Shown: one piece after another, positions 14,022 through 47,284 of the stretch
Layout of the letters: every line of letters starts with the position of its first letter
Position numbering within the stretch: position 1 is the first letter of the stretch
Source: Fimicolochytrium jonesii
Lineage: Eukaryota
Assembly (NCBI RefSeq): GCF_025526975.1
Contig: NW_026515669.1
Location: 2,108,001 to 2,155,284, forward strand
Reading direction: 5' to 3'
DNA: 47,284 nucleotides
Position numbers and translations under genes: made by a program
The notes under the pieces: generated by a model
The model's database searches: none
Told to the model about the DNA's origin: nothing
Seen by the model: the letters and a program-made list of their open reading frames with translations, nothing else

Positions 14022-14342
14022 GAAAGTACCAGATGTGCATACCAGAACCCCGACAGCCCTGGTATCTTATCCGGTATCTGCTCCGCGCGAAAACATCGAA
14101 AACGAGTCGAGAATATCGATTGCGCTACATCATCTGGTAACTTGGTAACTTCCAAAGCCATTTCTGTCACAGGAAAAGAAAGTGAGAAACAACAATCTCT
14201 TCTAATGGAATAATTCTCCAGATCAAAATCTTGATATGAAGTTACCAGATTACCAGATGCTATACGGCACTCGACTTTTCTGAAGCCTTCGTGTGCCGAA
14301 ACTACCAGCAAAGATACCAGCCGTCTGGTAATCTGGTAACTT
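14022..14342. repeat. Origin-like module copy 2 (diverged direct repeat of 13261..13582) directly upstream of the primase-helicase
   Basis: Same 12 boxes in the same order and nearly the same spacing. Shared blocks ccgcgcgaaaacatcgaaaacga, atcgattgcg, tcaaaatcttga, ttcgtgtgccgaa and tctggtaatctggtaa. Confidence 0.85.
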
Positions 14343-17300
14343 CGCCTCTGCGGTTTGGATGTGGAGCAGGGCAAGGGGATCGCATACAGGACATGGGCAA
14401 CTCGAGAAAGCAAACGCGTTTGAAACTCGAGAATAAAAAACGTTGCCCAAAGTTAGGCAATGAGGACGAGAATAAGATTGCGATGACAACTGACGCATAC
14501 AAAAGCTTGGTCAGGCAGTTGCGCATGGACAAGAGCTCCCAAGCACATCAGACGCACTTCAACTTCCCGGGCTTCACTGGAATATTTGCAAGGTTGAGCG
14601 TGCCCTCTGAAAAGGAGCGCAGGGATCTCTACGACATACTCTTCGCTGTGATTCAGCAGGCAGGTGACGACATTCGGGCGAGCCCATGCGTTCTGTGTGA
14701 ACGCATACCACAAGATGGTCGATTTCGACTGTTCTTCGATTGGGATGTGAAGCTTCACGAAGTCGGAACCGATGACGATATTTTGCTGACCAACCAAACC
14801 GTCGTGCAGGGAATCAGGGACGAACTTGTTGCATCCTACGGTGCCGATTATGGAGATACGCCTCTTCTGGTCTCTGTTGGCTGCGCCCAGAAAATTCATG
14901 TCAACTGTCCCGGCATTGTCGTGACGAAAGAAGTTGCGGTCTTCCTATGTGAGCGTTTGCGGGTACGACTGATCACAAAGGCATGTCTTGCAGTGGACAA
15001 AGCAGATAAGTGTCTCGACACTTCGGTCTACAATGGTCAGGGCCTCCGCCTGCTTGGATGTCACAAGGGAAGCAGCTTGAAAGGCGCCGATGTTGAGCCA
15101 TACGAAGCGCGATTCGGCGCTGGATCCTTCCGGTACGCTTATACCCCCGTGGACAGTGTTTCACTTGAGCGGCGCGCGATTCGGAGAGAGGATCTAGACG
15201 ACTACAGCATCATTCCACAGCCTCATGCAACAGTGACCTTGCTTTGTGACGAGGCTGATGGAGACCTTCAATCGCGTAGAACTGCGAAAGTCCCCCGACA
15301 AGCATTGAAGAGGGGAGTTTCAGCCGAGGAGAGCGACATGACAGTCGATTGCAACAGCAACACAGAGGTGTTTTCAGGACCGGAGTACAGCGCGGTGCTA
15401 GGGAAAGCGACCAGCTTTTTCTCCTCCCAGTACGGGCTGACGGAGCAGTTTCACTCGATCATTGTACAAAGGGCCAAGAAAGCTCTCATTTTCAGTACGA
15501 AGAGCCGCAGGTGCTACATCAAAGGCGATACCCACGGGAGCAACAATCCCTACATCGTCATCTCCAGCTATGGGTGTCGCTTCAAGTGTCCAAGCTTTGA
15601 ATGCAGTAAGGTGCCTACCCGGAGTATCCCTCTCTGCGATCTGCCGGAAGAGCTTTCGGAAGCGTACACGAAGGTCTTCCATGTGGAATCTTCAGACAAG
15701 GGAAGGAAGGCGTTTGCGTCTGGAGTTCGCGCCCTGGCAAAAACGCTCCCGAGTATGAACTTGAAGTTCAAGCCCGCAGAGGTTCGCAAAAGTGGAGTTG
15801 GCTGGGTGTGCGTGCTGCAGGAGAACACTCACTGTCCCAGTCATCAAAAGGAGCACGACCGTCCTGAGAACTATCTCATCGCGAATTCTAACGGGTGCTT
15901 TGTCGGCTGCAGGCAAGATCCTGCGCTGTTCTTTCCGTCCGGTGCTTCTGGTCTACAGCTGCCAAGCAGTGTGACCAACGTGCTCTTCCAGTATGTAGAC
16001 AAGCGCACCTTCATTGTTGACAGCGGGACTTTAGCGGGCAACACCCCATTCATAGACGAGATCAAAGACGAGACACAGCATTTCGAGGACGCGGAGGCCA
16101 ACCGGCTGTTCAAGAGTACATTTCGAGGAACGCACTCGGCGTACGCAAAGTACCTGTACCACTCTAAAGGCGCTCTCTTTATCTGCAATCGGGAAAGACA
16201 AGCTGCTTGGCACGTGTTCAACTGCCACCGCTGGAAGTATGACCCGGGCGCGGCATACCTAATGCGCTACCTCTCGTCCGATGAGAACCTCGAACCGTAC
16301 CTCAGAGCGCGCAAGCTCTACAGTCAGGGCGACGAGGTCTCATGGAAGATTGCGTTCAACATCGACAAGCTCATTACGAGCTTCCAAAACCATGGGAGCC
16401 AGCGGGGTTTTGTTGACGAATGTGCGTTGTTTTTCAACGAACGCAGCGATGAGCTCGAACGGAACCTGGATGGGAACCGGTATCTGATCGGTTTTGCCAA
16501 TGGGGTCTTTGACTTGAGGGAGCGCATGTTTCGAAAAGGGGAGCCGAACGACTATGTCAGCATGACTGTGCATTACGAGTACGGTGAGCCAATCGAAGAA
16601 GACGTCGGCGACGTGCTCGCCTTTATCAGCAAGATTCTTCCCGATGATGCGGTTCGCCACTACGTACTCAAGCTCCTGGGATCTTGTGTTTCTGGGGATA
16701 CTCGCGACGAAAAGTTCCATGTGTGGATCGGAGGCGGAGCGAACGGCAAGAGTACGCTGCTCTCGCTTGTCGCTGCGGCTCTGGGTCAGTACGCAGCTTC
16801 GATGAAGGCCACGATGTTGACCCAAAAGTCACCTCCCGCTGACAACGCAACTCCAGGAATGAACAAAGCAGTTGGGGCACGTATGGTTGCCATGCAGGAA
16901 ACAAACTCTGGCGAAAGCGTCAACGAATCGCTTCTGAAGAGCTCACTGGGTGGTGACAAGATAGACTACCGCCCATTGTTCAAAGAGGCGCGAGAGTTCT
17001 ATCCTCATTTCAAGATGATCCTCTGCACGAACAACCCCTTGACCATAAAAGGGACGGACCACGGAATCTGGCGGAAGATCCGAATGGTTCCTTTTGAAAG
17101 CCAGTTTGTGGCCAAGATTGGCAGGATAGCCCACAAGGAAGGAAACGCATCAGTTGAGCCCATCGAACACTTGATTCAAGATGCCCAAGGAGATGCTGTG
17201 TTTGAGATGGACAAGAGCGTTAAAGACAAGATCGACGGGCCTTGGAAAGTCGCTTTCATGCACATGCTTATACGATATTATTACGTGTGGCAGGAGGAGG

Positions 17301-17611
17301 GGCTTGACGAGGTCCCGGACAAAATCGCTCAATACAATCGGGACTACAAGGAATCACAAGATATGGTTGGGAAGTTCCTAGAAGAAAAGTGTCAAATCGG
17401 TGCAGAGTACAAGGTGCACAGCAAGCCGCTATGGGAAGCTTTCTTCGACTGGCAGAAGACTGAAGCCCACCAGATCCGTCAACACGACTTCAGCCAGAAG
17501 CTCAAGCGAGATTCAAGGTTCACCTACTCCAAAGGGGTTGATATTAACGGGAAGAACAGTTGTGGTTACGCTGGGCTTCAGGTAATTGGAACTGCGGCAG
17601 CGTGTATGTGA
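14291..17611 (+). CDS. AEP primase (NCLDV/herpes/PrimPol type) - Zn fingers - D5-like SF3 helicase - C-terminal winged helix fusion
   Basis: 1106-aa intronless ORF; likely ATG 14393 or 14483. AEP motifs FRLFFDWDVK, KIHVNCPG and LDTSVY..GLRLLGCHK. Two Cys/His clusters: CYIKGDTHGSN..CRFKC..C and CPSHQKEHDR..CFVGC. D5_N LIGFANGVFDL..FRKGEPNDYVSM. Walker A GGGANGKS, Walker B VAMQE, motif C LCTN, DHGIWRKIRMVPF. C-terminus FLEEKC..LWEAFFDW..FSQKLK..GYAGLQ. Confidence 0.95.
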   Translation: MCRNYQQRYQPSGNLVTSPLRFGCGAGQGDRIQDMGNSRKQTRLKLENKKRCPKLGNEDENKIAMTTDAYKSLVRQLRMDKSSQAHQTHFNFPGFTGIFARLSVPSEKERRDLYDILFAVIQQAGDDIRASPCVLCERIPQDGRFRLFFDWDVKLHEVGTDDDILLTNQTVVQGIRDELVASYGADYGDTPLLVSVGCAQKIHVNCPGIVVTKEVAVFLCERLRVRLITKACLAVDKADKCLDTSVYNGQGLRLLGCHKGSSLKGADVEPYEARFGAGSFRYAYTPVDSVSLERRAIRREDLDDYSIIPQPHATVTLLCDEADGDLQSRRTAKVPRQALKRGVSAEESDMTVDCNSNTEVFSGPEYSAVLGKATSFFSSQYGLTEQFHSIIVQRAKKALIFSTKSRRCYIKGDTHGSNNPYIVISSYGCRFKCPSFECSKVPTRSIPLCDLPEELSEAYTKVFHVESSDKGRKAFASGVRALAKTLPSMNLKFKPAEVRKSGVGWVCVLQENTHCPSHQKEHDRPENYLIANSNGCFVGCRQDPALFFPSGASGLQLPSSVTNVLFQYVDKRTFIVDSGTLAGNTPFIDEIKDETQHFEDAEANRLFKSTFRGTHSAYAKYLYHSKGALFICNRERQAAWHVFNCHRWKYDPGAAYLMRYLSSDENLEPYLRARKLYSQGDEVSWKIAFNIDKLITSFQNHGSQRGFVDECALFFNERSDELERNLDGNRYLIGFANGVFDLRERMFRKGEPNDYVSMTVHYEYGEPIEEDVGDVLAFISKILPDDAVRHYVLKLLGSCVSGDTRDEKFHVWIGGGANGKSTLLSLVAAALGQYAASMKATMLTQKSPPADNATPGMNKAVGARMVAMQETNSGESVNESLLKSSLGGDKIDYRPLFKEAREFYPHFKMILCTNNPLTIKGTDHGIWRKIRMVPFESQFVAKIGRIAHKEGNASVEPIEHLIQDAQGDAVFEMDKSVKDKIDGPWKVAFMHMLIRYYYVWQEEGLDEVPDKIAQYNRDYKESQDMVGKFLEEKCQIGAEYKVHSKPLWEAFFDWQKTEAHQIRQHDFSQKLKRDSRFTYSKGVDINGKNSCGYAGLQVIGTAAACM

Positions 17612-19251
17612 GCAATCCTCAGTACGGACTGTTGCCGCAATGCGCCTCATGGGGCTACTTCGATGACCGACCTGAACGATGCACTGTAGAGAGAGACCTA
17701 ATGCAGTATGTTTCCAAGGGCGTGCGGAATCCCTTCAAATATGCGCGAAGCCCATACATCTCGGACCGGCGCTGACTCTCACGAGTCCACCTGCCCGTCC
17801 CATACGAGTTCACCTACCTTTGGAGAGGCATAGTCTGCAATGTGATGGCTCACCTACCGGGGCTGCGACATCCCCCTGCGTCGATGACCTTCCGAGTGAC
17901 GTCGTTTTCATTTAATTACATGTACCAGGGCTTGCGATGTAGACAAATGACTAAGGATCGGGCTGCCATGACTGCCAAGTGTGTGTCTGCATCAGGCCGC
18001 CGGAGGTCCATTGTTCATGACACGTAGGGTGAATTTCCCACCACATGCCGATTCAAGGAGGAGGCTCCGTGGGAATTGGCTACGACATCCCAGTAACGCG
18101 TTCCCATTGGCCGGTTCGGTTCCACACACGAACGACTGTCTTGTAATTAATGTGTGGGACGCGTCGAAGGAATTCCGCCAGGAGGCCGGCAATTTTCTCA
18201 CCGTTTTCGCCTATTTCTTATGCCGTTACCCTTTCTCCTCTAGCGACCAAATCCTATTACACTTCCCACCAGGGGCCCCTCTGCTACACAAATGATCCGC
18301 AGGTGCCCCTTATAGCTATTGTACATATGCTCCACGTCATAAGAAGGGGTGAGCACATGAGCTTGCAAGATCTAAGGAATACGGACGAGCAAGGTGCCAC
18401 CAAACTGTCATAATCTTGCCTTTTCCTTCAATCCTTCGAATCAGATGTCGGTCGGGAAGACTTCTGAGGCAATACTGTACAAACGCACTTTCATTCTCGA
18501 GATTGTTACATTTTCATTGTGGAGAATAGTCCGACGGGCCAGGAAGCAAACCCATTGCCAAGGTGAAGTATGCATTAACACAACTGTGCAATCCACGAAG
18601 ATGGGCCTTGCGTCGGAGGGCTCTGCCAGGGGGAGCATTCAAGAGAGCCAGCGCGTGCCAGGGGCGATAACCCATTTCCCCTTATCTCTCTCCCTCACAA
18701 CCTTCGCTACACGGTTTTCTTATTTCCATTCCGTTTTCGTCCTCATGACGCGACGTTTTTGTCCGTCCTCCACCACTTGTTCATCCTGACATCAGTATAA
18801 GGTGGGTGGGATCAGAATGGAGGGACAGGAGAGTACAAAGGGATGGTAAGAAGCTGCTTGTCCTGCGACTGCGACTGCGACCTGCGACCTAGCAAGTTGT
18901 GGGCGATCGTTTCTCAACTCGCTGGAGCTTCCCCTCCCGTACCCGTCGTGTTGGCCTCCTGTTTCTCAAGCCAAAAGTAAAGCCCATCACATCGCCCGGT
19001 CTTCTGTACGAAGGCGTCCCCTTGTACTGCTCACTGCACTGGCCCCAGTAACACCTGAAGAAAGCTCCTTCACGATCCACTGCCGGCAAGCACCTATCCA
19101 GACACCAGGTAAGCCTCACTCGCCTCGATTTGTTTCAAAATCAGCGAGGTAACCCTCCACGACCCGATACCAGCGAGGTCAATCTCCGATACGCTTTGCA
19201 CACCGATTCCCTATCAAGCCATATCAAGCCATCTTTGGTCCAGAAGCCGCA

Positions 19252-20073
19252 ATGCACGCAGCCCTGACAGTTGACCAGAGTCATGAAACACGTCGTCACA
19301 CTTCCCTGCCTGGTAACACTTTGCACATAGTTTGCTCCAGCAAATCCAGAACCCAAGCTGACGTCAATCATCATGATTTTTTGCTCATAGTGAAGATACA
19401 TATCTTGCCAATCGAAGTTCTTGAACGCATTGCGGAAGCCGCAGCGGGAGTGATGAACTACGACCAACTTGTGCTCTTCCTCTACATGATACGCACTAGC
19501 AGGCGAAACCTTATTGCTCGTCGGGCTGCGTTCATGACAGCCCGGAGCATCATTAAAGACCATCTTGGACGACGCAGCACAGCAGACAATCGGACCTACC
19601 CTCTCGATTTTGTCAGTCGGAGCTTGACCATCCCCATCGATGGTACGAACAAAGAACTCCGCATTCACTCCATGATTTGGGGTGCGAACACGTATCCGGA
19701 AATCCCTTCCAAAGAGATAGTACACTGTGGCACAGTGAAAAATCGCTGGATGCTTCAGCCGTGGACTGTGCACATCGATGAGTTTGGAGCAAGCTTGATC
19801 GAAACGGTTGACGGTCATGAGATTCCGGAAGGATGGAACGACTCTGGAGAGTACGAGGAGGGTGAAGAGGAAGATGAGGAAGATGACGAAGACGAGGAAG
19901 ATGACGACACGGAATCGGTGCATTCGGTAGCCAAACACTGGTTATGGGGCGCGTGTGCTCTGTCTGAATCTAGAGACGAGTTGTGCGATTGGCGTTGTCC
20001 TTGCCGTGATCATCTGAAGCCTGCCAGCGCACGAGCGCTTGAGCCTCGAAACACTGTACCTCACGAATTGTAA
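19252..20073 (+). CDS. F-box-like protein with acidic tract and CDWxCPCRxHLKP motif (family 1, copy b)
   Basis: ILPIEVLERIAE (F-box-like), EYEEGEEEDEEDDEDEEDDD, and a C-terminal motif shared with 811..1398. The true start is uncertain. Confidence 0.7.
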   Translation: MHAALTVDQSHETRRHTSLPGNTLHIVCSSKSRTQADVNHHDFLLIVKIHILPIEVLERIAEAAAGVMNYDQLVLFLYMIRTSRRNLIARRAAFMTARSIIKDHLGRRSTADNRTYPLDFVSRSLTIPIDGTNKELRIHSMIWGANTYPEIPSKEIVHCGTVKNRWMLQPWTVHIDEFGASLIETVDGHEIPEGWNDSGEYEEGEEEDEEDDEDEEDDDTESVHSVAKHWLWGACALSESRDELCDWRCPCRDHLKPASARALEPRNTVPHEL

Positions 20074-21626: not shown

Positions 21627-22949
21627 TGGCCCGCGCCAAAAGATTATTTCCCGCAGCATCGCTGAAGATAACGAAGCTTCCCTTGCATACTATCCTTGAA
21701 GTTGGTCGGACGCGGAGCCGAGGGTGAAATCTAGTAACCCCATATACCTCTTCACGTCTCAGCATCTCAGCACCTGTCTTTCGCACATGCTTTCACTTTC
21801 CGACCATCCAAGTGGCCGTTGTTTTATTCCATAGCTTCAGCACATGATTGTCATTAGCGTTTGCTGGTTTTGCGGCGTTGGCTTGGGCATTTGTCTGTGG
21901 TATGCCTCGTAAATCGTCCCTCTTGTTCGAAGAAGGTTCGATCGAAAATCCTGACCAGGAACCAGAAGCGAAGCTCGGGCAATCCCAAGTGCCAATCATC
22001 CTCCCAGTCTTGCTCCCAAAAATGGACCGAAGTTACGTTGTCCCCTTGATTCTGCGTCGATGATGCGCGGAGTATGCTACAATGGGCGCCCTCGCTCATG
22101 CATGTCGGCACGGAGCCAAACAGCGTTGGACCGCCGGTGTGGCTACGTATCTAGAATATCAACTATCGCGCGTAGGACAGGTTCCGCTTTGTATTCTTTT
22201 TGATTAAACCCGTTTTGACACAGCAAAGGAGCGTGGCCAAGCTGTGGTGGTGGCATGAAGACACTCCCAACGTGCATTTCGTCGCCACCGTACATTAAAG
22301 ATCTATCCGGTCGATTGGCTGCTCGGAGCCACATCTGCAGACTTTCCATCGGCTGCTCCGCTCCTCCTACTTTCCATCGGCAAAGTATGTACGACCAAGG
22401 AAAGAATATTCCCCTGTTGTTATATTCCGCTGGGGCATACGGTCCTATTGGTCCCGAGCTATATTCTTACGACTGCCGGTAACGCTTGGGTCGTCGACGC
22501 GGCAGCCCCTTGCTCAAGTCGCACAACATGGGTCAATGATGTGAGTGAGGCCCGGCATTCGCATCCAGAAAGTACTCCTTGCATAAAGCAAGAGAAATTG
22601 CGCTCTTGATAAAAGATCCATGACTCGGACCAGCTAACCCCGCTACTGCATCGGTAAACACATCATTTTCTCGTTGTTGCACATTGGTTCTATTCTCATT
22701 TTCTCCTTCTAGCTCCGAGCGGGCTCAAGATGGTCAGCCGGGTTCCCTTAAACATGAGCAAACGGAGTGCAGCTCTCAAAGATGCAAACCCCAGAAGCAC
22801 TCAGCGGTGCCACTCAATATCACACGTTTGTCATAATCTGCCACCAGATTCCCCGTCATTTTGAGTATGGTGTGGGGGATGGAACGATCAGCCTTCCCCA
22901 AAAAGAAAAGCCTATATACAAGTAGCTTGGTCAGAGCCGGGCCTCAAGA

Positions 22950-23564
22950 ATGTTCATTTATCATACAAGCATATGGCTTCTTCTCCTGATAGCACTATGT
23001 GTCCTATGGGCTGCGCCTCCTGCACTTGCATGGGAATGGCACAAGGGCTGGAACGAGACCGGCCAGCGGAAAAGTCCCGAAGAGGACCCCAAACCTATAG
23101 CTGGAGCTGGCATCCAGCATGACTTCAACGCGATATCTCGCCGCATTCCAGGCAGTAATGCCGTGCCTGTTTTCCGTCGCTTACTTTGTGGTATGAGACC
23201 AGGCTCCGATGGGGAAGGCGCTATGTACATATTCAGGAATGGTCTGCAACATAGATACTCGATGGATGAGGACCGCTGGAAAGTGGGATGCACCAGCCTC
23301 AAGGTGGGAGTGAAGAAACGCTTGGCGCAATGGGGAAGACAGTGTGGCCGCTCGCCTGTGCTGATCGGTGAATGGAAGGTCAAGCACCACAGATTATGTG
23401 AGAACTTGATACATTCCGAGCTGAAGTTGAAGGGTAAGTGGCTGGGAAACGTCCAATGTGAGTGCAGAACCCAGAAAGGCCATTGCGAGTGGTTCCGGGG
23501 CCCGTTAGCTGACCTTCAGGAAACCATCGGATTCTGGGTGAACTACGTGAATCAACACTATTGA
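22950..23564 (+). CDS. T5orf172/MUG113 (GIY-YIG superfamily) domain protein with N-terminal signal-like peptide
   Basis: GAMYIF...WKVGCT...KRLAQWGRQC...ENLIHSELK...CECRTQKGHCEWF. N-terminus IWLLLLIALCVLWAAPPALA. TATA-like ctatataca at ~22912. Confidence 0.85.
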   Translation: MFIYHTSIWLLLLIALCVLWAAPPALAWEWHKGWNETGQRKSPEEDPKPIAGAGIQHDFNAISRRIPGSNAVPVFRRLLCGMRPGSDGEGAMYIFRNGLQHRYSMDEDRWKVGCTSLKVGVKKRLAQWGRQCGRSPVLIGEWKVKHHRLCENLIHSELKLKGKWLGNVQCECRTQKGHCEWFRGPLADLQETIGFWVNYVNQHY

Positions 23565-31724: not shown

Positions 31725-32883
31725 TCCTACATATAAAGCGGCAATCAGTAAGATCGCTGTATACGGGATGGGTAGAATCTAGCCGCTGTCACTTGGCCAG
31801 ATGTGAGAACAGGACTCCTTGCAATTGCAAGATCCAGTTGCACCATCACGCGATGCGATAGCAATTTTGACAGCACGCTTTGTAGAAACTCTCAGGCTTT
31901 GGGCATTCCAGGATACACCGTCGCGGAGAATGTCGGGGAAACCTCCGGATCGGCAGGGGGCCACAGATCGCGAGCATCTTCAGTTGTTCTACAAAGAAAA
32001 CCCACGAACCTTACTTTCCCCACCCCTGTGTTATTCTAATAATTTGAAGTAAAATACAACCGCACATTCTGGTCCGAAAGTTGGTACCCATCCCCGGTTA
32101 AGTAGGTGTCAGACAAGCTGCACTAGTTTGCGATATCACCATGAGGACTGCCCAAACTAGTGTGACAACCCCTTTTTCCGCCCGCATCGCCACTGGCACT
32201 CTTGGCGGTTCAAGTACGGTCTCCGCCGGAACGCAAGTATCTCTAACACCGAAAAAGTTTCGGGGTTTTTAACCAAGTATTGAGTGAGGCTAGAAAGAAA
32301 TCATTCGGGGGACACCTCGTTGTCGGGCAGATTCAAATAGAATGAGGAATTATCATAACGTATCGCCAGGATCTCCCTCCTTCCTGCTATTTTCGCGCAC
32401 TCCATATTCAATGTAGGGCCACACATTCATCGCTCAACAATTTATCGCAGTTCGTTAGGTGTTACAACACACCGCTCGCAGGACGGTTTGTTAAGCACTC
32501 AGTGCAAGGAGGGCATTTCCCAAGGATTAAAGGACTGCGTCTCAATTGTTGGTTATGACGGTTTTTTTTATCACAAGGCAAGCGGCAGGTTGCTTCCTGA
32601 CAAATGTAGTGGAAAACGTCATGGCCAATAGCGATGGATGAAGGCTGCCATTAGCTTCATAGCGAGAATGTGGCATGCGATCCAGAAGGTGCGGCTTGCA
32701 GGGGCCTATATCATCGGCGTTGTGGAACGTCCCTATTCCTATGTGCTCCATTCAAATCATTTGCAAGTTCGCTCCTGCCCAGTGACGAGCTTGGCCGCCG
32801 GGGCTCGCTCGAATTCAATCTCCCAGTTTGCAAACCCATGAGCTCGGGGGTCTGCACACGGATTCAGTTGCCGAGGCCGCATG

Positions 32884-32904
32884 GGGTTAGGGTTAGGGTT
32901 GGGG
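32884..32904 (+). repeat. Interstitial telomere-repeat relic
   Basis: gggttagggttagggttgggg in the same orientation as the terminal array. Confidence 0.75.
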
Positions 32905-34432
32905 CATGCTTTAGCATCAGGCCAGGTCTGTTTGTTTTGAGTCCATTTTGCTGCTCCAGTTGACAACCATCGTGCTATTTTTGATCCGAATCCTCGAAAT
33001 TTGTTGTGGTGGGTCCATCATCCAGCTCGACTATCGATCCTAGGGGTGTATGTGTCTCCTCCATGTGCAAGAATGTCGTGTCCACATCGGGGAATAGTGA
33101 AGCCGTAATCAAAGCATCATAATACAAGGTTCCTCATGTGTCCCTTGTGATTTCACGAGATCAATGCGACCACGACAGAACATCTGAGCATATTTTGTGA
33201 GTTACGCGCGAGCGCCCTTTGAAGATGGATGGATGTATGTGGTCCACAGATAGTATATTGAGCTCAAACATAGATAGCGTCCATTCGGCAGACTTCTCCG
33301 TACCCTAAGCCGGCATTCGCAGTCACTTGAAAAACCTAACGGCTGCGTCCTTGACGTAGGATGTGCTAGATCTGGAAGCACCCGACCTTCCTGAAATGAT
33401 GCTGCTAGAGCTAGGGCTTCAATCCCCAAGGCCATTGGCCATCGTACCACTGGAAAAGCGAGCCCGCAATGTCTTCAACATATGAGAGCGGTGGAGTTCG
33501 TAGCGGTAGGGAGCGGTCCTGATGGCCTGTACAGCTCCATACTTATAGATGTGCCACATGGACGTGAGTGGCATTCCGGTACGAAGTGCCTGCGCTGCGC
33601 GAAATCTATTTCCTTTGCATCAGCCCATAGCTCATGTCGGACCGCATCAGCAATTGTGATTGGACCCTTCACTATGCTCGACATCGCGCCCTTCCACTTT
33701 AAGTGGTGACCCGAAGTTACGAGCCGGTTGGTGTGAGCGGATGTTCTGTGACGATGCTAGACAAGCTGACACTGAAATAACCACACGTCGCGGGCTTGTT
33801 CTTTCTGGACAATGTCGTCGGTGGTGGTCCCTCGATGAATATGGCGAATGGACTACGGATGTGGGTAGATGGGAAGCCATAGTGATGCGGTACACGACCG
33901 AGGCTTTGTGTGTGTATGGGAGCGGCGAGTGGCTCGCGGACTGTCCGTAAACTCCATTTCATTACTGAACTGGGAGGCACGTTGAAGGATTTGGACGAAC
34001 CGACCCCGTGAACTTGCCCCGGCGCAGAGACTATCAAGGGCTAATCAGATGAGACCAACTTGCTGAAAGTCGTGCTAAGTGACTTCCCTGTCACGTCCGG
34101 AGCGCCTGGGACATGATAGACCAACGTCCCTCCGAACATACAGCATCCCAATCGCACGTCTTCAAAGCAATGCACAGCAAAAGCATAAGTAACGATGGTG
34201 CCAGGAGGGTCTTGCTGGGAGGAATGCGGGGACGGATAACCCCTGATCTTTGCCCGCTACGTAATATGGCACCTACGGTCGCCGTTAGCTGAAGGGGGGA
34301 GGGTCGAACGCTTACCACGAACCCGATGCACAAGACAAGACATGTGGGGCGAGGGAAGTGCGTTCAGTCGGCGAACTTTTTTTCTATTTCATCAGTAAAT
34401 TCGTCCCACCCACCCTCAGTCTTTCTGAAAAC

Positions 34433-37754: not shown

Positions 37755-37813
37755 AGGTCTAAGGGCGTAAGGGTTAGGGTTAGGAACAGGGTTAGTGAAC
37801 GCGTAGGGGTTAA
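37755..37813 (+). repeat. Degenerate interstitial telomere-repeat relic
   Basis: taagggcgtaagggttagggttaggaacagggttagtgaacgcgtaggggttaa. Confidence 0.65.
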
Positions 37814-38093
37814 GCCAGGTATGTGGTTGGACGTGCTCTCGTGCTCTCCGTTGATGTTTATTCTTAGGGTGGTTGAATGGCATTGATTTGGTAGTGGCTT
37901 GTGATAGGTTCGTTCAGGTTCAGTATGATCAACGGCCGCCGCATAAGCGTCTCTCCCTCCTCCATGTGGGTCTGCAGGGCATCACATGGAGAATACGGAC
38001 GGATGTGTCCGTTTCCAATAGCGATAGAAGTGGGAATAGCGAGTCTTACCGAGAGACAGCAGTACAGCCTTTATCATGTCCTTGATTATCTCC

Positions 38094-38447: not shown

Positions 38448-39146
38448 GTTTGTTTCACGTGCGACGCTGAAGGTTGCAAAGGGATGTTTCTATCTTGATA
38501 CAGTACAAATGGATTAAAATGTGACCCGCAAACGCACTTAGCTGCTTCATCTCCGAACTGCAATCCGGCCATGGAACTAAAAGGTACAGCTCGGGTTGGT
38601 CATCGGCCCTTCTCTTTTGACTGGTGAATCGGTGTATGGAGGGAGATCATCCAATCTCACAGCGTGTGGGGTTGCTGAGCACGCGGCTGCAGGGATAGCT
38701 GCACTAACCACCCATGCTTTCCCTGCTTCAAGGATCTCGTTCGGAACAAGCAGCACGATGTGGCCTGCGGGAACATGGCAGTACCGTCCACCCCAAGGCG
38801 CGGCGTATCCTGGTAAGCTAGCTGTTGTCACAGTATCTGAAGGTGGGATAGACATGGCTTTCGAGCCGTTCAGAATGGGACGGAGGATATGATCTGAGGC
38901 GCAGCAGCCTTTCCGTCGCTAGTTGCCGTGTATACCAAGTCCGCTCACTGACACATTCTGACAGCGCGTCACAAACGCGCGGCAAGAAGTGTACGCTATA
39001 CAGTCTCCTGCCCCATTCCGTTGAACGTTGGACAAACGTAGCTTCAGTGCGACGGGAATCCCCGAGATAGAAAACAAGAAGCGTTTCGAACTTTTTTTTT
39101 CTATCTCTATGAAAAACAAAGGTATCACCTTCTTTCTGAAGAAAAC

Positions 39147-39512
39147 ATGCACTTTGGAGACACTGATAGATCGGTCACTGAGGAAAGAGACCTTGGAGGA
39201 CTCATCAATACTCCAAACACTAAGCAACTGCTTCGAGAGTTTATCGAAGTTCATTTGATGGTGCGTGATCTTCAACGGCGCTTGAAAGATGCCAAAAGTA
39301 GTCGGCAAGCAGTGGAAAAGGACCTGGCGCAGGTCTTTACTGAGGCGGAGGTTCAGACGGTCGACATCCCGGGCTTTCGTTTATACCGGTACGATCAACG
39401 GCTGGTTCCGTACCATCTGCCTAGGCGACCGAACACTTGCACCACCGTGAAGCAAACCACGCACGCTGGTAGAAAACGCATGTGTAGAAGCCTCCTGAAG
39501 TTCCGGCTCTAG
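39147..39512 (+). CDS. DUF5760-like small coiled-coil protein (family 4, copy b); last gene before the telomere
   Basis: LLREFIEVHLMVRDLQRRLKDAKSSRQAVEKDLAQVFTEAEVQTVDIPGFRL resembles the giant-virus DUF5760 pattern (recalled, not searched). Paralogue at 35558..35779. Confidence 0.6.
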   Translation: MHFGDTDRSVTEERDLGGLINTPNTKQLLREFIEVHLMVRDLQRRLKDAKSSRQAVEKDLAQVFTEAEVQTVDIPGFRLYRYDQRLVPYHLPRRPNTCTTVKQTTHAGRKRMCRSLLKFRL

Positions 39513-39690: not shown

Positions 39691-39722
<32 letters not shown>

Positions 39723-40014
39723 GGTTAGGGTTAGGGTTAGGGTTAGGGTTAGGGTTAGGGTTAGGGTTAGGGTTAGGGTTAGGGTTAGGGTTAGGGTTAG
39801 GGTTAGGGTTAGGGTTAGGGTTAGGGTTAGGGTTAGGGTTAGGGTTAGGGTTAGGGTTAGGGTTAGGGTTAGGGTTAGGGTTAGGGTTAGGGTTAGGGTT
39901 AGGGTTAGGGTTAGGGTTAGGGTTAGGGTTAGGGTTAGGGTTAGGGTTAGGGTTAGGGTTAGGGTTAGGGTTAGGGTTAGGGTTAGGGTTAGGGTTAGGG
40001 TTAGGGTTAGGGTT
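39691..40014 (+). repeat. Telomeric (TTAGGG)n array 1 (proximal)
   Basis: About 54 near-perfect units. Confidence 0.99.
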
Positions 40015-41799
40015 ACAAGACCCCCTGGGTTGGGTTTTATTTTTGGGTTGCCTGGAACCCTAGGGACTTAGAAATTTTCGGGTTTTTTGGCTTTTGGGTG
40101 TGTTCTACAGTTCAAATTCTTGACTCTGAGGGGTGTGGTGGCGGGGGGTGTTGCGCACCTAGGCAAGTCAGGGGGGACTAGGTGTGCAAGGGCAAGTGAT
40201 GGGTCATATGGGTGGTGGTGCGGGTACGGGGGGGGGGGGGGCAGGGGTGCCAATAGGGGAGGGGGGGGGGTTGATATAAAGGGGAAATATATGTTATATA
40301 TACGTTTTAGGACTTGTGCAAATTGGGATTTTTTAGTGCCGATCCGGAGTTGGCGTCCTAATTAAAAGTTGGCCCCATATCATATTCTCTAATTGAAGTA
40401 CTCTCGGATTGGCAATCCGTGCAGAAACGGCTTCAGAAACTTAGAAAAACGAAATTTTCACGCGACGGGGGGTAAAAAGTTGGAAAATGTGGTGATATCT
40501 CAACATCTGGCTGACTATCCAGTGGAGGGCACTTAATGAAAGTTGATTGTAGCCTATGGTTTGCATAGCTGATGTGGTAGCAAATCTTGTGTAACCTTGC
40601 TTTTGGCTGAAGAACAGGGCCCCTTTTCAATTCTCAAGTAGTGACCCCCAAGACCTCCTAACAAAAGACACGAGTACGTATGTGCAGGCAAAGGGGTTTG
40701 GCTGTGTTCTCCAGTAAACATTTTGTGATTCCGCTGTGCATCGTAGACTGTTTGTAGGACCGTTGCGGAATGTCATTTACCAAAACTGTTGAACATTTTC
40801 CGTTTAAAGCAGTGTTCTACAGTTTGTCCATGCAGGTTAGAGCACGTGACCTGGGCTTGCTTGCAGGGTATGCAGAGTGAGAGGGTTGGGGTTAGAGATT
40901 TCCCAGATCACTTATTAAATTCAGCCAAACTGTCTCTGTCATGGAACATTTAAAATGGTGGAAAGTAGTATTGCATTTATTGATTTAGAGTACATTGGAA
41001 AAGCGCACATTCAGAAAAGGGTTTTGGTGTAAAGTTATCAACGACATTCAACAGTACTAAAGGACTTCCGCAAGCATGTCACGGACTTGGTTCTGTCCAA
41101 AAGTCGTACGGCACTCAGGGTACCTGGCGCAGCGGAGACGGAAACGATGCTGACCGCCAATGCTATGAAAAGCTGAGCCTCCACAGTTGGGACATTGAAG
41201 CTGATCACGATGCTGATGGAAGAGTTCACAGATATTGCCAATGGGAGCAGCATCAGGCACTTCCCCATCCCCATGACCCCACCAAGCACGAGCAGGATCA
41301 ATGACGGGTGCAATGCCTTTGAACCATCCGGGATTGAAACCAAAAGAGTTGAGAACATCTCGGAAGCGCTGACAGTCTGTCACAGTAGTCTGTCTATTGC
41401 GATCTCCTCTGAATAGAACTCTGGTGGCAGCGTCCATGATGCCATTGATGAGACTGTAGTACTCTTCCACCGGCACAAGCTTCAAGGAGTTTGCGCCCAT
41501 GTGCTGGAAAATGGTCTCGATCTGGTCCAAATGGAGATTCAAAACCATCTGTTCTGCTGATTCCAACCTGGCGCACTGAACTCGCACTTCAACTCGCATG
41601 CCAGTAATGTGGAGCGGGTGACCGTTGAGCCATTGACGTAAACCTCTCAGTGTCTCACTGCGATCACCAAGGCTGGACTTGGTTTGGGGCATTCGCGAAG
41701 ACAAAGTCGAAGAGTAGGCTTTGAGCGCATGAACAAGCTTTGGGTAGCAAGTAACCCGAACATTGGCGTGACCCGCAATGTCAAAGCGGGTGGACCCAA
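40015..41799 (-). mobile_element. Telomere-inserted element A, copy 1 (5'-truncated retroelement-like)
   Basis: Starts GGGTT|ACAAGACCCCCTGGG; flanked by TTAGGG arrays; near-identical to 42284..44040, 44937..45509 and 46076..46651. Confidence 0.85.
41057..41799 (-). CDS. Element A ORF with C-terminal C4 Zn-ribbon; open up to the telomere junction (5'-truncated)
   Basis: QLQCPNCGGSAFHSIGGQHRFRLRCARYPECRTTF. The frame has no stop from 41799 to 41057. AATAAA on the minus strand at ~40976-40981. Confidence 0.7.
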
Positions 41800-42283
41800 G
41801 GGTTAGGGTTAGGGTTAGGGTTAGGGTTAGGGTTAGGGTTAGGGTTAGGGTTAGGGTTAGGGTTAGGGTTAGGGTTAGGGTTAGGGTTAGGGTTAGGGTT
41901 AGGGTTAGGGTTAGGGTTAGGGTTAGGGTTAGGGTTAGGGTTAGGGTTAGGGTTAGGGTTAGGGTTAGGGTTAGGGTTAGGGTTAGGGTTAGGGTTAGGG
42001 TTAGGGTTAGGGTTAGGGTTAGGGTTAGGGTTAGGGTTAGGGTTAGGGTTAGGTTAGGGTTAGGGTTAGGGTTAGGGTTAGGGTTAGGGTTAGGGTTAGG
42101 GTTAGGGTTAGGGTTAGGGTTAGGGTTAGGGTTAGGGTTAGGGTTAGGGTTAGGGTTAGGGTTAGGGTTAGGGTTAGGGTTAGGGTTAGGGTTAGGGTTA
42201 GGGTTAGGGTTAGGGTTAGGGTTAGGGTTAGGGTTAGGGTTAGGGTTAGGGTTAGGGTTAGGGTTAGGGTTAGGGTTAGGGTT
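41800..42283 (+). repeat. Telomeric array 2
   Basis: About 80 TTAGGG units, one TTAGG variant. Confidence 0.99.
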
Positions 42284-44040
42284 ACAAGACCCCCTGGGTT
42301 GGGTTTTATTATTGGGTTGCCTGGAACCCTAGGGACTTAGAAATTTTCGAGTTTTCTGGCTTTTGGGTGTGTTCTACAGTTCGAATTCTTGACTCTGAGG
42401 GATGTAGTGGTGGGGGGGTGTTGCGCACCTAGGCAAGTCGGGGAGGACTAGGTGTGCAAGGGCAAGTGATGGGTCATATGGGTGGTGGTGCGGGTACGGG
42501 GGGGGGCAGGGGTGCCAATAGGGGGGGGGGGGGGTTGATATAAAGGGGACATATATGTTATATATACGTTATAGGACTTGTGCAAATTGGGATTCTTATA
42601 GTGCCGATCCGGAGTTGGCGTCCTAATTGAAAAGTTGGACCCATATCATATTCTCTAATTGAAGTACTCTCGGATTGGCAATCCGTGCGGAAACGGCTTC
42701 AGAAACTTAGAAAAACGAAATTTTCACGCGACGGGGGGTAAAAAGTTGGAAAATGTGGTGATATCTCAACATCTGGCTGACTATCCAGTGTAGGGCACTT
42801 AATGAAAGTTGATTGTAGCCTATGGTTTGCATGGCTGATGTGGTAGCAAATCTTGTGTAACCTTGCTTTTGGCTGAAGAACAGGGCCCCTTTTCAATTCT
42901 CAAGTAGTGACCCCCAAGACCTCCTAACAAAAGACACGAGTACGTATGTGCAGGCAAAGGGGTTTGGCTGTGTTCTCCAGTAAACATTTTGTGATTCCGC
43001 TGTGCATCGTAGACTGTTTGTAGGACCCTTGCGGAATGTTATTTACCAAAACTGTTGAACATTTTCCGGTTAAAGCAGTGTTCTACAGTTTGTCCATGCA
43101 GGTGAGAGCACGTGACCTGGGCTTGCTTGCAGGGTACGCAGAGTGAGAGGGTTAGGGTTAGAGATTTCCCAGATCACTTATTAAATTCAGCCAAACTGTC
43201 TCTGTCATGGAACATTTAAAATGGTGGGAAGTAGTATTGCATTTATTGATTTAGAGTACATTGGAAAAGCGCACATTCAGAAAAGGGTTTTGGTGTAACG
43301 TTATCAACGGCATTCAACAGTACTAAAGGACTTCCGCAAGCATGTCACGGACTTGGTTCTGTCCAAAAGTCGTACGGCACTCAGGGTACCTGGCGCAGCG
43401 GAGACGGAAACGATGCTGACCGCCAATGCTATGAAAAGCTGAGCCTCCACAGTTGGGACATTGAAGCTGATCACGATGCTGATGGAAGAGTTCACGGATA
43501 TTGCCAATGGGAGCAGCATCAGGCACTTCCCCATCCCCATGACCCCACCAAGCACGAGCAGGATCAATGACGGGTGCAATGCCTTTGAACCATCCGGGGT
43601 TGAAACCAAAAGAGTTGAGAACATCTCGGAAGCGCTGACAGTCTGTCACAGTAGTCTGTCTATTGCGATCTCCTCTGAATAGAACTCTGGTGGCAGCGTC
43701 CATGATGCCATTGATGAGACTGTAGTACTCTTCCACCGGCACAAGCTTCAAGGAGTTTGCGCCCATGTGCTGGAAAATGGTCTCGATCTGGTCCAAATGG
43801 AGATTCAAAACCATCTGTTCCGCTGATTCCAACCTGGCGCACTGAACTCGCACTTCAACTCGCATGCCAGTAATGTGGAGCGGGTGGACTTGGTTTGGGG
43901 CATTCGCGAAGACAAAGTCGAAGAGTAGGCTTTGAGCGCATGAACAAGCTTTGGGTAGCAAGTAACCCGAACATTGGCGTGACCCGCAATGTCAAAGCGG
44001 GTGGACCCAAATCCCTCACCAAGGATGGTGAGCATGGGAA
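42284..44040 (-). mobile_element. Element A, copy 2 (extends ~30 nt further 5' but carries a 55-nt internal deletion)
   Basis: Same proximal junction as copy 1. Lacks accgttgagc...caccaaggctg (41621-41675 in copy 1). Extra sequence atccctcaccaaggatggtgagcatgggaa at the distal end. Confidence 0.85.
43323..44035 (-). pseudogene. Element A ORF, frameshifted by the 55-nt deletion
   Basis: ATG 44035 (MLTILGEGFGSTRFDIAG...). Restoring 55 nt gives 768 nt, i.e. 255 aa in frame with the Zn-ribbon C-terminus. Confidence 0.7.
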
Positions 44041-44105
44041 GGGTTAGGGTTAGGGTTAGGGTTAGGGTTAGGGTTAGGGTTAGGGTTAGGGTTAGGGTTA
44101 GGGTT
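44041..44105 (+). repeat. Telomeric array 3
   Basis: About 11 TTAGGG units. Confidence 0.98.
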
Positions 44106-44884
44106 ACAGGACTGTTCCCGGTTATGGGTTATTTTTGGCCATCCAAAAAGTGTCAAATAAAGTTGCTAGCAATGTTCAGGGGCATCTTACTGTAATGTGC
44201 TTCAAATCTTGGGGCATGTTTTCCACTCAATGCCCCGGGAAAATCTGTTTTTCCGATTTTTTACTATGAAAATATTGCCAAAATGCATTTTCTGAAACTC
44301 TGAGTGGATGGATTTCGCTTAAAGTGAGATATGTCTCAGAAAACATCCCCAAAAACATCTAGGAACCTTCATCTACTCTAGTATTCATCAACTCCTGGCA
44401 CTTTTTGTTTCCAGGCAATATGGGGGTGTTCTCCAGTTGGCGGCGAATGACTCATTTTTGCTATGATCTCGGGGACGGAGGCGGAAGCGAAGTAGAGAAG
44501 ACAGGGCGAGAGTGATAGGCGACAAGAGATTTTATTGGCAAAACAAGAAACAAGGACTAGAACAGGAGATGAGAAGAACTGGTGTTGATCTGCTGGGGAG
44601 GAAGGGAACGGACAAAGAGAGGCCGGCTATTTATAGATAGGCAACCCAGCAGATCAGAGAACTACAACAACAAGAGGGGACTGGGGGGGCATCAGCTATG
44701 CTCCTAGAGCGTGCGTGGCGAGCGTAGAGAGCATTGCTACAGCTGCTGGCTATGGGGAAGTAGTGGGGGGTGTGGAGAAGCCGAGGGGGGGATTGGCGAA
44801 ATGAGAGGAGAGAGGAGGAGTGGCGATATTGCAAGAGGATTGGCAAAATGAGAGGAGAGAGGGGGAGTGGCATTGACATTGACA
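44106..44884 (-). mobile_element. Telomere-inserted element B, copy 1 (longest)
   Basis: Starts GGGTT|ACAGGACTGTTCCC; its proximal part is repeated at 45546..45799 and 46688..46918. Strand is inferred from the truncation polarity. Confidence 0.8.
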
Positions 44885-44936
44885 GGGTAGGGTTAGGGTT
44901 AGGGTTAGGGTTAGGGTTAGGGTTAGGGTTAGGGTT
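44885..44936 (+). repeat. Telomeric array 4
   Basis: gggtaggg followed by about 8 TTAGGG units. Confidence 0.97.
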
Positions 44937-45509
44937 ACAAGACCCCCTGGGTTGGGTTTTATTATTGGGTTGCCTGGAACCCTAGGGACTTAGAAATTTT
45001 CGAGTTTTCTGGCTTTTGGGTGTGTTCTACAGTTCGAATTTTTGACTCTGAGGGAGGTAGTGGCGGGGGGTATTGCGCACCTAGGCAAGTCGGGGAGGAC
45101 TAGGTGTGCAAGGGCAAGTGATGGGTCATATGGGCGGTGGTGCGGGTACGGGGGGGGGGGGTTGATATAAAGGGGACATATATGTTATATATACGTTATA
45201 GGACTTGTGCAAATTGGGATTTTTCTAGTGCCGATCCGGAGTTGGCGTCCTAATTGAAAAGTTGGCCCCATATCATATTCTCTAATTGAAGTACTCTCGG
45301 ATTGGCAATCCGTGCGGAAACGGCTTCAGAAACTTAGAAAAACGAAATTTTCACGCGACGGGGGGTAAAAAGTTGGAAAATGTGGTGATATCTCAACATC
45401 TGGCTGACTATCCAGTGTAGGGCACTTAATGAAAGTTGATTGTAGCCTATGGTTTGCATAGCTGATGTGGTAGCAAATCTTGTGTAACCTTGCTTTTGGC
45501 TGAAGAACA
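44937..45509 (-). mobile_element. Element A, copy 3 (3'-terminal ~570 bp only)
   Basis: Same proximal junction; truncated at ctgaagaacaggg. Confidence 0.85.
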
Positions 45510-45545
45510 GGGTTAGGGTTAGGGGTTAGGGTTAGGGTTAGGGTT
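45510..45545 (+). repeat. Telomeric array 5 (contains a TTAGGGG variant)
   Basis: gggttagggttaggggttagggttagggttagggtt. Confidence 0.95.
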
Positions 45546-45799
45546 ACAGGACTGTTCCCGGTTATGGGTTATTTTTGGCCATCCAAAAAGTGTCAAATAA
45601 AGTTGCTAGCAATGTTCAGGGGCATCTTACTGTAATGTGCTTCAAATCTTGGGGCATGTTTTCCACTCAATGCCCCGGGAAAATCTGTTTTTCCGATTTT
45701 TTACTATGAAAATATTGCCAAAATGCATTTTCTGAAACTCTGAGTGGATGGATTTCGCTTAAAGTGAGATATGTCTCAGAAAACATCCCCAAAAACATC
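45546..45799 (-). mobile_element. Element B, copy 2 (~254 bp)
   Basis: Matches 44106..44359; truncated at aaaaacatct. Confidence 0.85.
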
Positions 45800-46075
45800 T
45801 TAGGGTTAGGGTTAGGTTAGGGTTAGGGTTAGGGTTAGGGTTAGGGTTAGGGTTAGGGTTAGGGTTAGGGTTAGGGTTAGGGTTAGGGTTAGGGTTAGGG
45901 TTAGGGTTAGGGTTAGGGTTAGGGTTAGGGTTAGGGTTAGGGTTAGGGTTAGGGTTAGGGTTAGGGTTAGGGTTAGGGTTAGGGTTAGGGTTAGGGTTAG
46001 GGTTAGGGTTAGGGTTAGGGTTAGGGTTAGGGTTAGGTTAGGGTTAGGGTTAGGGTTAGGGTTAGGGTTAGGGTT
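45800..46075 (+). repeat. Telomeric array 6
   Basis: About 46 units with two TTAGG variants. Confidence 0.98.
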
Positions 46076-46651
46076 ACAAGACCCCCTGGGTTGGGTTTTA
46101 TTATTGGGTTGCCTGGAACCCTAGGGACTTAGAAATTTTCGAGTTTTCTGGCTTTTGGGTGTGTTCTACAGTTCGAATTTTTGACTCTGAGGGAGGTAGT
46201 GGCGGGGGGTATTGCGCACCTAGGCAAGTCGGGGAGGACTAGGTGTGCAAGGGCAAGTGATGGGTCATATGGGCGGTGGGTGCGGGGGTACGGGGGGGGG
46301 GGGGTTGATATAAAGGGGACATATATGTTATATATACGTTATAGGACTTGTGCAAATTGGGATTTTTCTAGTGCCGATCCGGAGTTGGCGTCCTAATTGA
46401 AAAGTTGGCCCCATATCATATTCTCTAATTGAAGTACTCTCGGATTGGCAATCCGTGCGGAAACGGCTTCAGAAACTTAGAAAAACGAAATTTTCACGCG
46501 ACGGGGGGTAAAAGTTGGAAAATGTGGTGATATCTCAACATCTGGCTGACTATCCAGTGTAGGGCACTTAATGAAAGTTGATTGTAGCCTATGGTTTGCA
46601 TAGCTGATGTGGTAGCAAATCTTGTGTAACCTTGCTTTTGGCTGAAGAACA
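46076..46651 (-). mobile_element. Element A, copy 4 (same truncation as copy 3)
   Basis: Near-identical to 44937..45509. Confidence 0.85.
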
Positions 46652-46687
46652 GGGTTAGGGTTAGGGGTTAGGGTTAGGGTTAGGGTT
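46652..46687 (+). repeat. Telomeric array 7 (identical to array 5)
   Basis: Same length and same TTAGGGG variant as 45510..45545. Confidence 0.95.
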
Positions 46688-46918
46688 ACAGGACTGTTCC
46701 CGGTTATGGGTTATTTTTGGCCATCCAAAAAGTGTCAAATAAAGTTGCTAGCAATGTTCAGGGGCATCTTACTGTAATGTGCTTCAAATCTTGGGGCATG
46801 TTTTCCACTCAATGCCCCGGGAAAATCTGTTTTTCCGATTTTTTACTATGAAAATATTGCCAAAATGCATTTTCTGAAACTCTGAGTGGATGGATTTCGC
46901 TTAAAGTGAGATATGTCT
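46688..46918 (-). mobile_element. Element B, copy 3 (~231 bp)
   Basis: Truncated at gagatatgtct. Confidence 0.85.
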
Positions 46919-47284
46919 GGGTTAGGGTTAGGGTTTAGGGGTTAGGGTTAGGGTTAGGGTTAGGGTTAGGGTTAGGGTTAGGGTTAGGGTTAGGGTTAGG
47001 GTTAGGGTTAGGGTTAGGGTTAGGGTTAGGGTTAGGGTTAGGGTTAGGGTTAGGGTTAGGGTTAGGGTTAGGGTTAGGGTTAGGGTTAGGGTTAGGGTTA
47101 GGGTTAGGGTTAGGGTTAGGGTTAGGGTTAGGGTTAGGGTTAGGGTTAGGGTTAGGGTTAGGGTTAGGGTTAGGGTTAGGGTTAGGGTTAGGGTTAGGGT
47201 TAGGGTTAGGGTTAGGGTTAGGGTTAGGGTTAGGGGGTTAGGGTTAGGGTTAGGGTTAGGGTTAGGGTTAGGGTTAGGGTTAGG
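46919..47284 (+). repeat. Terminal telomere (TTAGGG)n
   Basis: The G-rich strand runs 5'->3' to the end of the window; about 60 units. Confidence 0.99.

Follow-up and report, generated by a model that had tools for sequence, protein, structure and literature searches.

The window analysed here, a 47,284-nucleotide stretch of the chytrid Fimicolochytrium jonesii (contig NW_026515669.1, positions 2,108,001 to 2,155,284), ends in a telomere in which TTAGGG repeats alternate with copies of two elements, here named A and B, and the question raised is what kind of element builds such an array. A first-pass annotation had proposed a telomeric retroelement of Penelope-like or HeT-A-like type. Analysis of the array, of the partial open reading frame (ORF) in A and of its homologs leads us to favour, on balance, another explanation, namely that A is an undescribed, truncated rolling-circle DNA element with a predicted Rep_trans-type nickase, which would enter telomeric repeats by peel-and-paste, and that B is its non-coding partner.

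Structure of the telomere array

The last 7.6 kb of the window are telomere, made up of eight TTAGGG tracts (6 to about 81 units) and seven inserts in the order A-A-B-A-B-A-B (Table 1). All inserts lie on one strand and each begins directly after GGGTTA, the inner end being fixed and the outer ends variable. The junction reads GGGTTA/CA[A/G]GAC, with CAAGAC opening the A copies and CAGGAC the B copies. What the first-pass annotation had said of polarity, fixed inner end, fresh capping and youth was borne out, its retroelement identity was not (see below). A TTAGGG tract lies outside each insert; the A copies are about 97-100% identical and the B copies 100%; and the A ORF faces the centromere without a poly(A), its sense strand continuing into CCCTAA repeats. 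The alternating A/B array is confirmed as a real feature of this telomere. Comparison of A and B with positions 1-39690 of the window gave a single match, one 20-nt stretch with an E value of 0.21.

Table 1. Coordinates of the features of the telomere array (positions in the window)
Feature	Position	Strand	Remarks
Innermost TTAGGG tract	39691..40015	+	about 54 units; adjoins unique subtelomere
A1, element A copy	40016-41799	-	1784 bp; fixed end 40016, truncated at 41799
Fixed terminus of A	40016..40046	+	first 30 nt resemble the B terminus (terminal alignment)
A subterminal hairpin	40151..40189	+	12-bp stem including one G-T pair, loop of 15 nt; stem intact in 4/4 A copies
A1 ORF	41057..41799	-	5'-truncated, 247 aa; C-terminal half of a predicted Rep_trans-like protein
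Interstitial TTAGGG tract	41800..42284	+	about 81 units
A2, element A copy	42285-44040	-	1756 bp; ORF 43323-44040 broken by a 55-bp deletion
Interstitial TTAGGG tract	44041..44106	+	11 units
B1, element B copy	44107-44889	-	783 bp; without a recognised ORF
B subterminal hairpin	44207..44240	+	11-bp stem including two G-T pairs, loop of 12 nt; in 3/3 B copies
GTGTTCT(A/C)CAGT motif in B1	44426..44437	+	candidate protein-binding site
Interstitial TTAGGG tract	44890..44937	+	8 units
A3, tract and B2	44938..45799	-	A3 572 bp (44938-45509); 6-unit tract with TTAGGGG variant; B2 253 bp (45547-45799)
Interstitial TTAGGG tract	45800..46076	+	about 46 units
A4, tract and B3	46077..46918	-	A4 575 bp (46077-46651); identical 6-unit tract; B3 230 bp (46689-46918)
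Terminal TTAGGG tract	46919..47284	+	about 61 units; reaches the window end

Differences among the copies

The last two A-B blocks go back to a single duplication and not to separate insertions. A3-tract-B2 and A4-tract-B3 have the same A end point, the same 6-unit tract and the same TTAGGGG variant, with zero substitutions and homopolymer-type gaps only, and the A4-B3 block is 23 bp shorter in B. The seven inserts described earlier stand as regards array, order and polarity; since the last two A-B blocks are a single duplicated block, they represent at most six distinct outer ends.

The truncation points had also been said often to fall at telomere-like seeds. At the five junctions where the continuation is visible in a longer copy, the seed was 4 nt at two, which are one event, and 1 nt at the other three; a 1-nt seed is expected at about 45% of random positions. 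Telomere-like seeds at the outer ends are weak and not clearly enriched. A telomere-like stretch was also observed inside A, GGGTTAGGGTTAG in A2 (43146-43161), with one base off in A1 (40884-40897); it never served as a truncation site in this array.

Over 600 bp, 9-18 sites distinguish A1, A2 and A3/4 from one another. Compared with A1, A2 has a frameshifting deletion of 55 bp and an outer end 30 bp further out; the deletion was considered as an intron and rejected, being without intron ends. Of the differences between A1 and A2, 25 fall in about 1040 bp of non-coding sequence and 3 in 564 bp of coding sequence, two of the latter being silent; this distribution suggests selection on the source copies. 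Two 151-nt contigs from a soil metagenome were about 99% identical to A, one carrying the undeleted A1 allele and one the A2 extension. They support A as a real sequence; they span no telomere junction and do not address the array itself.

The ORF of element A and its homologs

The A1 ORF carries a putative catalytic Tyr (codon 41746-41744), a His, an RxE motif (41596-41588), a helical domain and a C4 zinc ribbon, and stops 1040 bp short of the fixed end, the stretch between being non-coding. Relative to P0003, a 523-aa Fimicolochytrium protein, the first residue is about 183 in A1 and about 173 in A2, so both are cut inside the gene. Both retain Y, H and RxE and have lost both N-terminal Asp motifs, for which reason the A copies in the array are likely inactive.

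An exhaustive homolog search with the A ORF gave 64 matches at E 0.001, 133-1143 aa in length, the best with 40-47% identity. Thirty homologs were looked up; nine carried an organism name and all nine were fungal, from the chytrids Fimicolochytrium and Phlyctochytrium and from Tilletia, Ustilago, Pseudozyma and Tremella. In Pfam the A ORF itself matched a weak zinc ribbon only. A scan at E 0.01 that covered 49 of the 64 matched no reverse transcriptase (RT), endonuclease or helicase, and none was among the best 25 of 46 Pfam families obtained with 69 aligned members at E 10; a PIF1-like helicase was likewise absent from those 25, and a weak search of the longer proteins was also empty. A C-terminal OTU protease is present in 12 of the 69 members, a domain which is also fused to Helentron proteins (PMC6431247), and the basidiomycete-type homologs P0037, P0045 and P0046 have N-terminal C2H2-like zinc fingers. 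In a family tree of 57 of the 69 rows (12 short rows dropped) the placement of A was unsupported, its nearest row being a Fimicolochytrium protein.

Two features of the genomic loci may be read as signs of mobility. Pseudozyma flocculosa has five near-identical loci, forming one 90% cluster on different contigs, and a second family, 30-36% identical; its named homologs include PSFLO_00783, 02514, 02845, 02858, 06955 and 07763. PSFLO_02845 and PSFLO_02858, only 13 tags apart, sit on two different contigs of 1.06 Mb and by tag order are probably near contig ends. In F. jonesii an identical protein is encoded by two consecutive loci, EV422DRAFT_570366 and EV422DRAFT_570367, and these locus tags suggest a one-gene unit.

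Word-indexed homolog searches, which were weak, gave nothing with the A ORF, three matches with the family alignment, all already known, and none among longer proteins. The PDB sequence search returned OTU alone (E 0.87), PHROGs gave nothing below E 0.03 for eight proteins, a plasmid tblastn gave nothing, and the viral scan gave 0 of 26. In the metagenome scan one of 150 candidate stretches, L001, was retained. A phage-like contig, L096, matched the junction pattern inside coding-like sequence and was judged a chance match.

Predicted fold and active site

Models were built on the full-length homolog P0003 and not on the truncated A ORF. AlphaFold2 gave a pLDDT of 93.4 for the whole protein, and a pLDDT of 95.4 with a pTM of 0.90 for residues 1-290, the core model. 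The top Foldseek match was RepDE, a staphylococcal rolling-circle initiator (whole protein E 0.01; core model 4cwc, E 4e-4, probability 0.97; also 4cwe). VIA-align against 48,161 chains placed RepSTK1 (4cij) first, with Z 6.9 in one comparison and Z 7.5, rmsd 3.9 and 179 aligned residues in another; the rows which followed were TBP, RepDE and TBP, all of TBP fold, and a second look agreed. ESM Atlas, which used its own low-confidence model and language-model features, gave feature scores of 0.93-0.95, and the family-labelled rows listed were all Rep_trans or Phage_CRI; five of the top six structure rows fell by cluster in Rep_trans/Phage_CRI, with TM 0.34-0.45. With the truncated A ORF it returned the zinc ribbon only. 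A TBP-like catalytic fold is found on the predicted models with middling scores, and the three methods appear to converge on one small superfamily, Rep_trans-like. The modelled fold of the A family is very probably of Rep_trans type.

Among the rows spanning each site, conservation was D9 24/25, D148 47/47, Y197 60/60, H202 61/61, R247 61/65 and E249 65/65, and the four putative catalytic residues are all on beta-strands in the AlphaFold2 core model. Rep_trans enzymes have a D-D-E triad and a beta-strand Tyr in the order N'-D, RxD, YxKxxE, RxE (PMC5714925). The A family has the triad and Tyr in this order, residues having been matched by order and spacing, without superposition of coordinates. 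The D148-Y197 gap of 49 residues is the same in 12 of 18 Rep_trans ORFs, which were drawn from 23 chosen loci and are mostly pT181-like; five others have 48-63 and one was misparsed. The family alignment has no conserved HUH, and the TBP fold matched by the model is distinct from that of HUH enzymes. The family is a predicted Rep_trans-type (TBP-fold, non-HUH) tyrosine nickase, the nicking being putative.

Shared ends, hairpins and element B

A and B are unrelated internally and resemble each other at the fixed end. When their first 30 nt were aligned, none of 3000 random pairs from A and B, and 2 of 3000 shuffles, scored as high (computed post hoc). The fixed terminus of A is likely its origin or attachment end. 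All seven copies retain a subterminal hairpin, which lies at a distance of 100-175 nt from the fixed end and in both elements closes on the + strand only, via G-T pairs; a post hoc comparison gave 14 entries for comparable + strand hairpins needing G-T pairs in the 39.7-kb subtelomere. The inserts have asymmetric ends without terminal inverted repeats (TIR), the inner end fixed and the hairpin present in 7/7. GTGTTCT(A/C)CAGT, a candidate protein-binding site, occurs at three places in A (40100, 40704, 40812) and one in B, always on the + strand, and nowhere in 1-39690; the nine matches in the window include the repeated A and B copies.

In B1, at 44635 on the - strand, TATAAATA is followed by a CT-rich tract, a promoter-like arrangement (TATA/CT-rich) aimed at the B fixed end. 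B may be transcribed from here as a non-coding RNA into CCCTAA repeats, and is likely a non-autonomous partner or the non-coding end of a second element. The hammerhead core motif, CTGANGA..GAAA with a stem, was absent from A1, A2 and B1 on either strand. Rfam gave no family match to A or B (one chance match, E 2.7), and a YxDD motif was found in no frame of the A and B sequence.

Comparison with known systems

The A family resembles Rep_trans (PF02486; RepC/RepD/RepSTK1), Phage_CRI (PF05144) and archaeal Rep-Arvir in its predicted TBP-like fold, in the order of D-D-E and strand Tyr and in the D-Y gap of 49. It differs from them in being eukaryotic (all named homologs are fungal) and without a sequence-level match, in having a His where motif III has Glu and a Y-to-E spacing of 52 rather than 17-32, and in adding the C4 zinc ribbon and, in some members, the OTU protease.

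IS91 has its origin end, which bears palindromes, on the downstream side of the transposase gene, and it inserts the non-coding strand beside a short target without target-site duplication (TSD) (PMC13181058, PMC5714925). A shares with IS91/ISCR a fixed end downstream of the gene, a subterminal palindrome, lack of TIR and TSD and a short target motif beside the fixed end. IS91 has an HUH Y2 enzyme, whereas that of A is predicted to be non-HUH with TTAGGG as target; the far end of A is shortened and telomere-capped, that of IS91 overrun. The telomeric Helitrons described in Paramecium (PMC13085455) are rolling-circle-type DNA, as A and B would be, with telomeric flanks, absolute orientation bias and non-autonomous partners. 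They are large, encode an HUH Rep-helicase and were proposed to enter the C-rich strand, whereas A would encode a Rep_trans-like protein of roughly 430-520 aa, with no helicase found in Pfam scans. Replitrons, as described in PMC10288648, have a helicase-free single-Tyr Rep, which the predicted enzyme of A, with no helicase in the Pfam scans, would resemble, and they share with A and B orientation-specific insertion and a non-autonomous partner with shared terminus and hairpin. Their enzyme is of HUH fold, unlike that predicted for A, and their ends carry short direct repeats; neither telomeres nor Rep_trans turned up when the paper was searched by word. A appears to resemble IS91 or a telomeric Helitron in its working, yet to be non-HUH, Rep_trans-like by predicted fold and not PF02486 by sequence.

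HeT-A and TART are defined by a proximal poly(A) and a gag-like ORF, while here no poly(A) was found at the proximal junction and the ORF family is not gag-like. The array resembles those of MoTeR1/MoTeR2 and FoTeR, which are reported to be head-to-tail and mixed, separated by TTAGGG, with 5' ends distal, truncations healed by telomere and D-loop duplications (PMC7367193, PMC12857005). Neither the RT nor the REL endonuclease which these elements encode was detected in the two inserts or in the family of the A protein; in A the ORF nearest the 3' end is a Rep-like gene ending in the C4 zinc ribbon, and non-coding sequence follows. Terminons, Athena and Coprina have the same polarity and the same 5' truncation by telomeric repeats, and may hold Rep ORFs as cargo, but are defined by a Penelope-like element (PLE) RT and a 3' hammerhead beside telomeric repeats, neither of which was found in the array copies (PMC6431247). 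The array does have the PLE trait of a 3' end toward the centromere with telomere-capped 5' truncation; in what it contains of A (1.8 kb) and of B (0.8 kb) no PLE-type RT was found.

Proposed mechanism and alternative explanations

Rep_trans enzymes nick one strand and become bound through Tyr to the 5' phosphate, and a free 3'-OH can reverse the bond (PMC13107129, PMC5714925). In A the fixed end lies downstream of the gene, and it is there that the G-rich strand has its 5' end. In the scheme proposed here, an intact A copy elsewhere would supply the enzyme, as every array copy lacks both N-terminal Asp motifs. The nickase would cut the G-rich strand at GGGTTA/CA[A/G]GAC and stay on the 5' end through Tyr; a telomeric 3'-OH, whether that of the natural overhang or one exposed by nicking within TTAGGG, would then attack the Tyr bond, fixing both inner junction and orientation. 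The outer end would arise where the peeled strand stops early or erodes, and telomerase would cap it. The similar terminus, the hairpin and the 12-bp motif could allow the A enzyme to mobilise B in trans, and recombination (D-loop or break-induced copying) may have duplicated the last A-B block.

Several results weigh against this explanation. The structural scores remain modest (Z < 8, TM < 0.5, 8-10% identity), and motifs I-III deviate, with N-x-x-D for RxD and Y-P-R-x-x-H for YxKxxE. The hhalign comparison of the family with the 18 Rep_trans sequences was not significant, and PF02486 is absent from the best 25 of the 46 Pfam families noted above. Judged by its sequence the family is outside PF02486 proper, since no match to PF02486 or PF05144 was found in 49 homologs at E 0.01 and hhalign gave no significance. 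The statistics for hairpins and termini were computed post hoc. L001, the one locus retained in the metagenome scan, is a decayed AT-rich fragment in which telomere repeats and RT were not evident on reading. As to the strand nicked, the proposal for Paramecium telomeric Helitrons is entry into the C-rich strand (PMC13085455); such entry with later erosion would yield the same picture here.

The strongest rival, which we consider unlikely, takes A and B as 3' fragments of larger telomeric retroelements with an RT, either Terminon/Coprina-like and lacking an endonuclease or MoTeR/CRE-like and possessing one, with the Rep-like gene as 3' cargo and the RT beyond the truncations. Polarity, 5' truncation and telomere caps are typical of such elements, and, also to the detriment of the rolling-circle explanation, Terminons carry Rep ORFs as cargo and are mostly known as 3' fragments (PMC6431247), while MoTeR retrotransposons give the same array pattern (PMC7367193). 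Polarity alone cannot identify the mechanism, because endonuclease-bearing MoTeR arrays show this same architecture. The termini of A and B are telomere-like, as are those of MoTeR (PMC7367193), and the promoter-like stretch of B points to the fixed end. Opposed to this are the lack of a hammerhead core or Rfam RNA in A and B and of YxDD in any frame, the lack of RT and endonuclease (REL included) among the Pfam matches of the 49 homologs scanned, the one-gene unit hinted at by the F. jonesii locus tags and the hairpins, which favour the antisense strand. The retroelement of the first-pass annotation was not upheld, the A ORF being neither RT nor gag-like and its family modelling as a Rep_trans-type nickase.

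The other alternatives are less probable still. That the Rep-like protein serves to replicate a plasmid or other extrachromosomal circle with telomeric repeats, which entered the chromosome end by homologous recombination or break-induced replication, as in the parallel of Y' elements, and not through junctions made by an enzyme, is improbable: Rep_trans proteins do initiate replication in the hosts where they are known and one block is exactly duplicated, but tract lengths, outer ends and sequences differ among most copies, so the array is not one rolling-circle concatemer, and the unrelated A and B have the same junction register. Passive capture, with fragments of a subtelomeric gene and spacer healed once each into the telomere and spread by recombination without an active element, seems more doubtful yet. 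Every array copy is defective and such block duplication is documented in MoTeR arrays (PMC7367193); against it, A and B, internally unrelated, share the 30-nt terminus, the subterminal hairpin and the 12-bp motif, and homologs are multicopy in other fungi. An assembly artefact, in which repeat-rich reads were wrongly joined at telomeric tracts, is very improbable. The homopolymer-type gaps which alone distinguish A3B2 from A4B3 would fit it, but A1, A2 and A3/4 have distinct substitutions and indels, all tracts are of one polarity and the short soil contigs match A.

Other features of the subtelomere

An intronless frame of 1123 codons at 14240-17611 (+) carries AEP_C962R, D5_N and DUF5906, a giant-virus-type primase-helicase, which suggests endogenous viral DNA near the chromosome end. 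A T5orf172/MUG113 (GIY-YIG-like) domain protein is encoded at 22926-23564 (+). Just inside the telomere, at 39042-39512 (+), a frame of 156 codons has a weak match to DUF7307 (Pam3 gp33-like; E 0.0095) and is possibly virus-derived. The frames at 811-1434 (-) and 19153-20073 (+), without a Pfam match, have a common C-D-W-x-C-P-C-R-x-H-L-K-P ending and are probably a lineage-specific paralog family. Degenerate short TTAGGG islands on the G-rich strand at 32881-32905 and 37765-37815 are possible relics of former ends.

Significance of a probable Rep_trans-type element in fungi

Rep_trans appeared restricted to bacteria, an archaeal branch was added in a 2026 paper, and its fold is non-homologous to that of HUH (PMC13107129), to which Replitrons and Helitrons belong (PMC10288648). 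In full-text literature no eukaryotic Rep_trans element was found among the matches listed; Repbase, subscription journals and supplements were outside the scope of this search, and such an element could stand there under another name. A recent survey of fungal DNA transposons (PMC12730594), in the part available, gave no sign of one. From the models, A and its homologs are likely rolling-circle elements of a new fungal group which has a Rep_trans-type nickase and whose copies are stacked here in a telomere. Tentatively, and at rather less than even confidence, A would be the first eukaryotic transposon with a Rep_trans-type (non-HUH) nickase, part of a rolling-circle group of chytrids and basidiomycetes that is separate from Helitrons and Replitrons and ligates a G-strand copy directly onto the free chromosome 3' end, a DNA-based and RT-free extension of the telomere which alternates with telomerase. 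If this is true, a fungal family with the Rep_trans fold and active-site layout would take the superfamily to a third domain and define a new transposon group, and a polar telomere array, usually taken as proof of retrotransposition, could be built by a DNA element.

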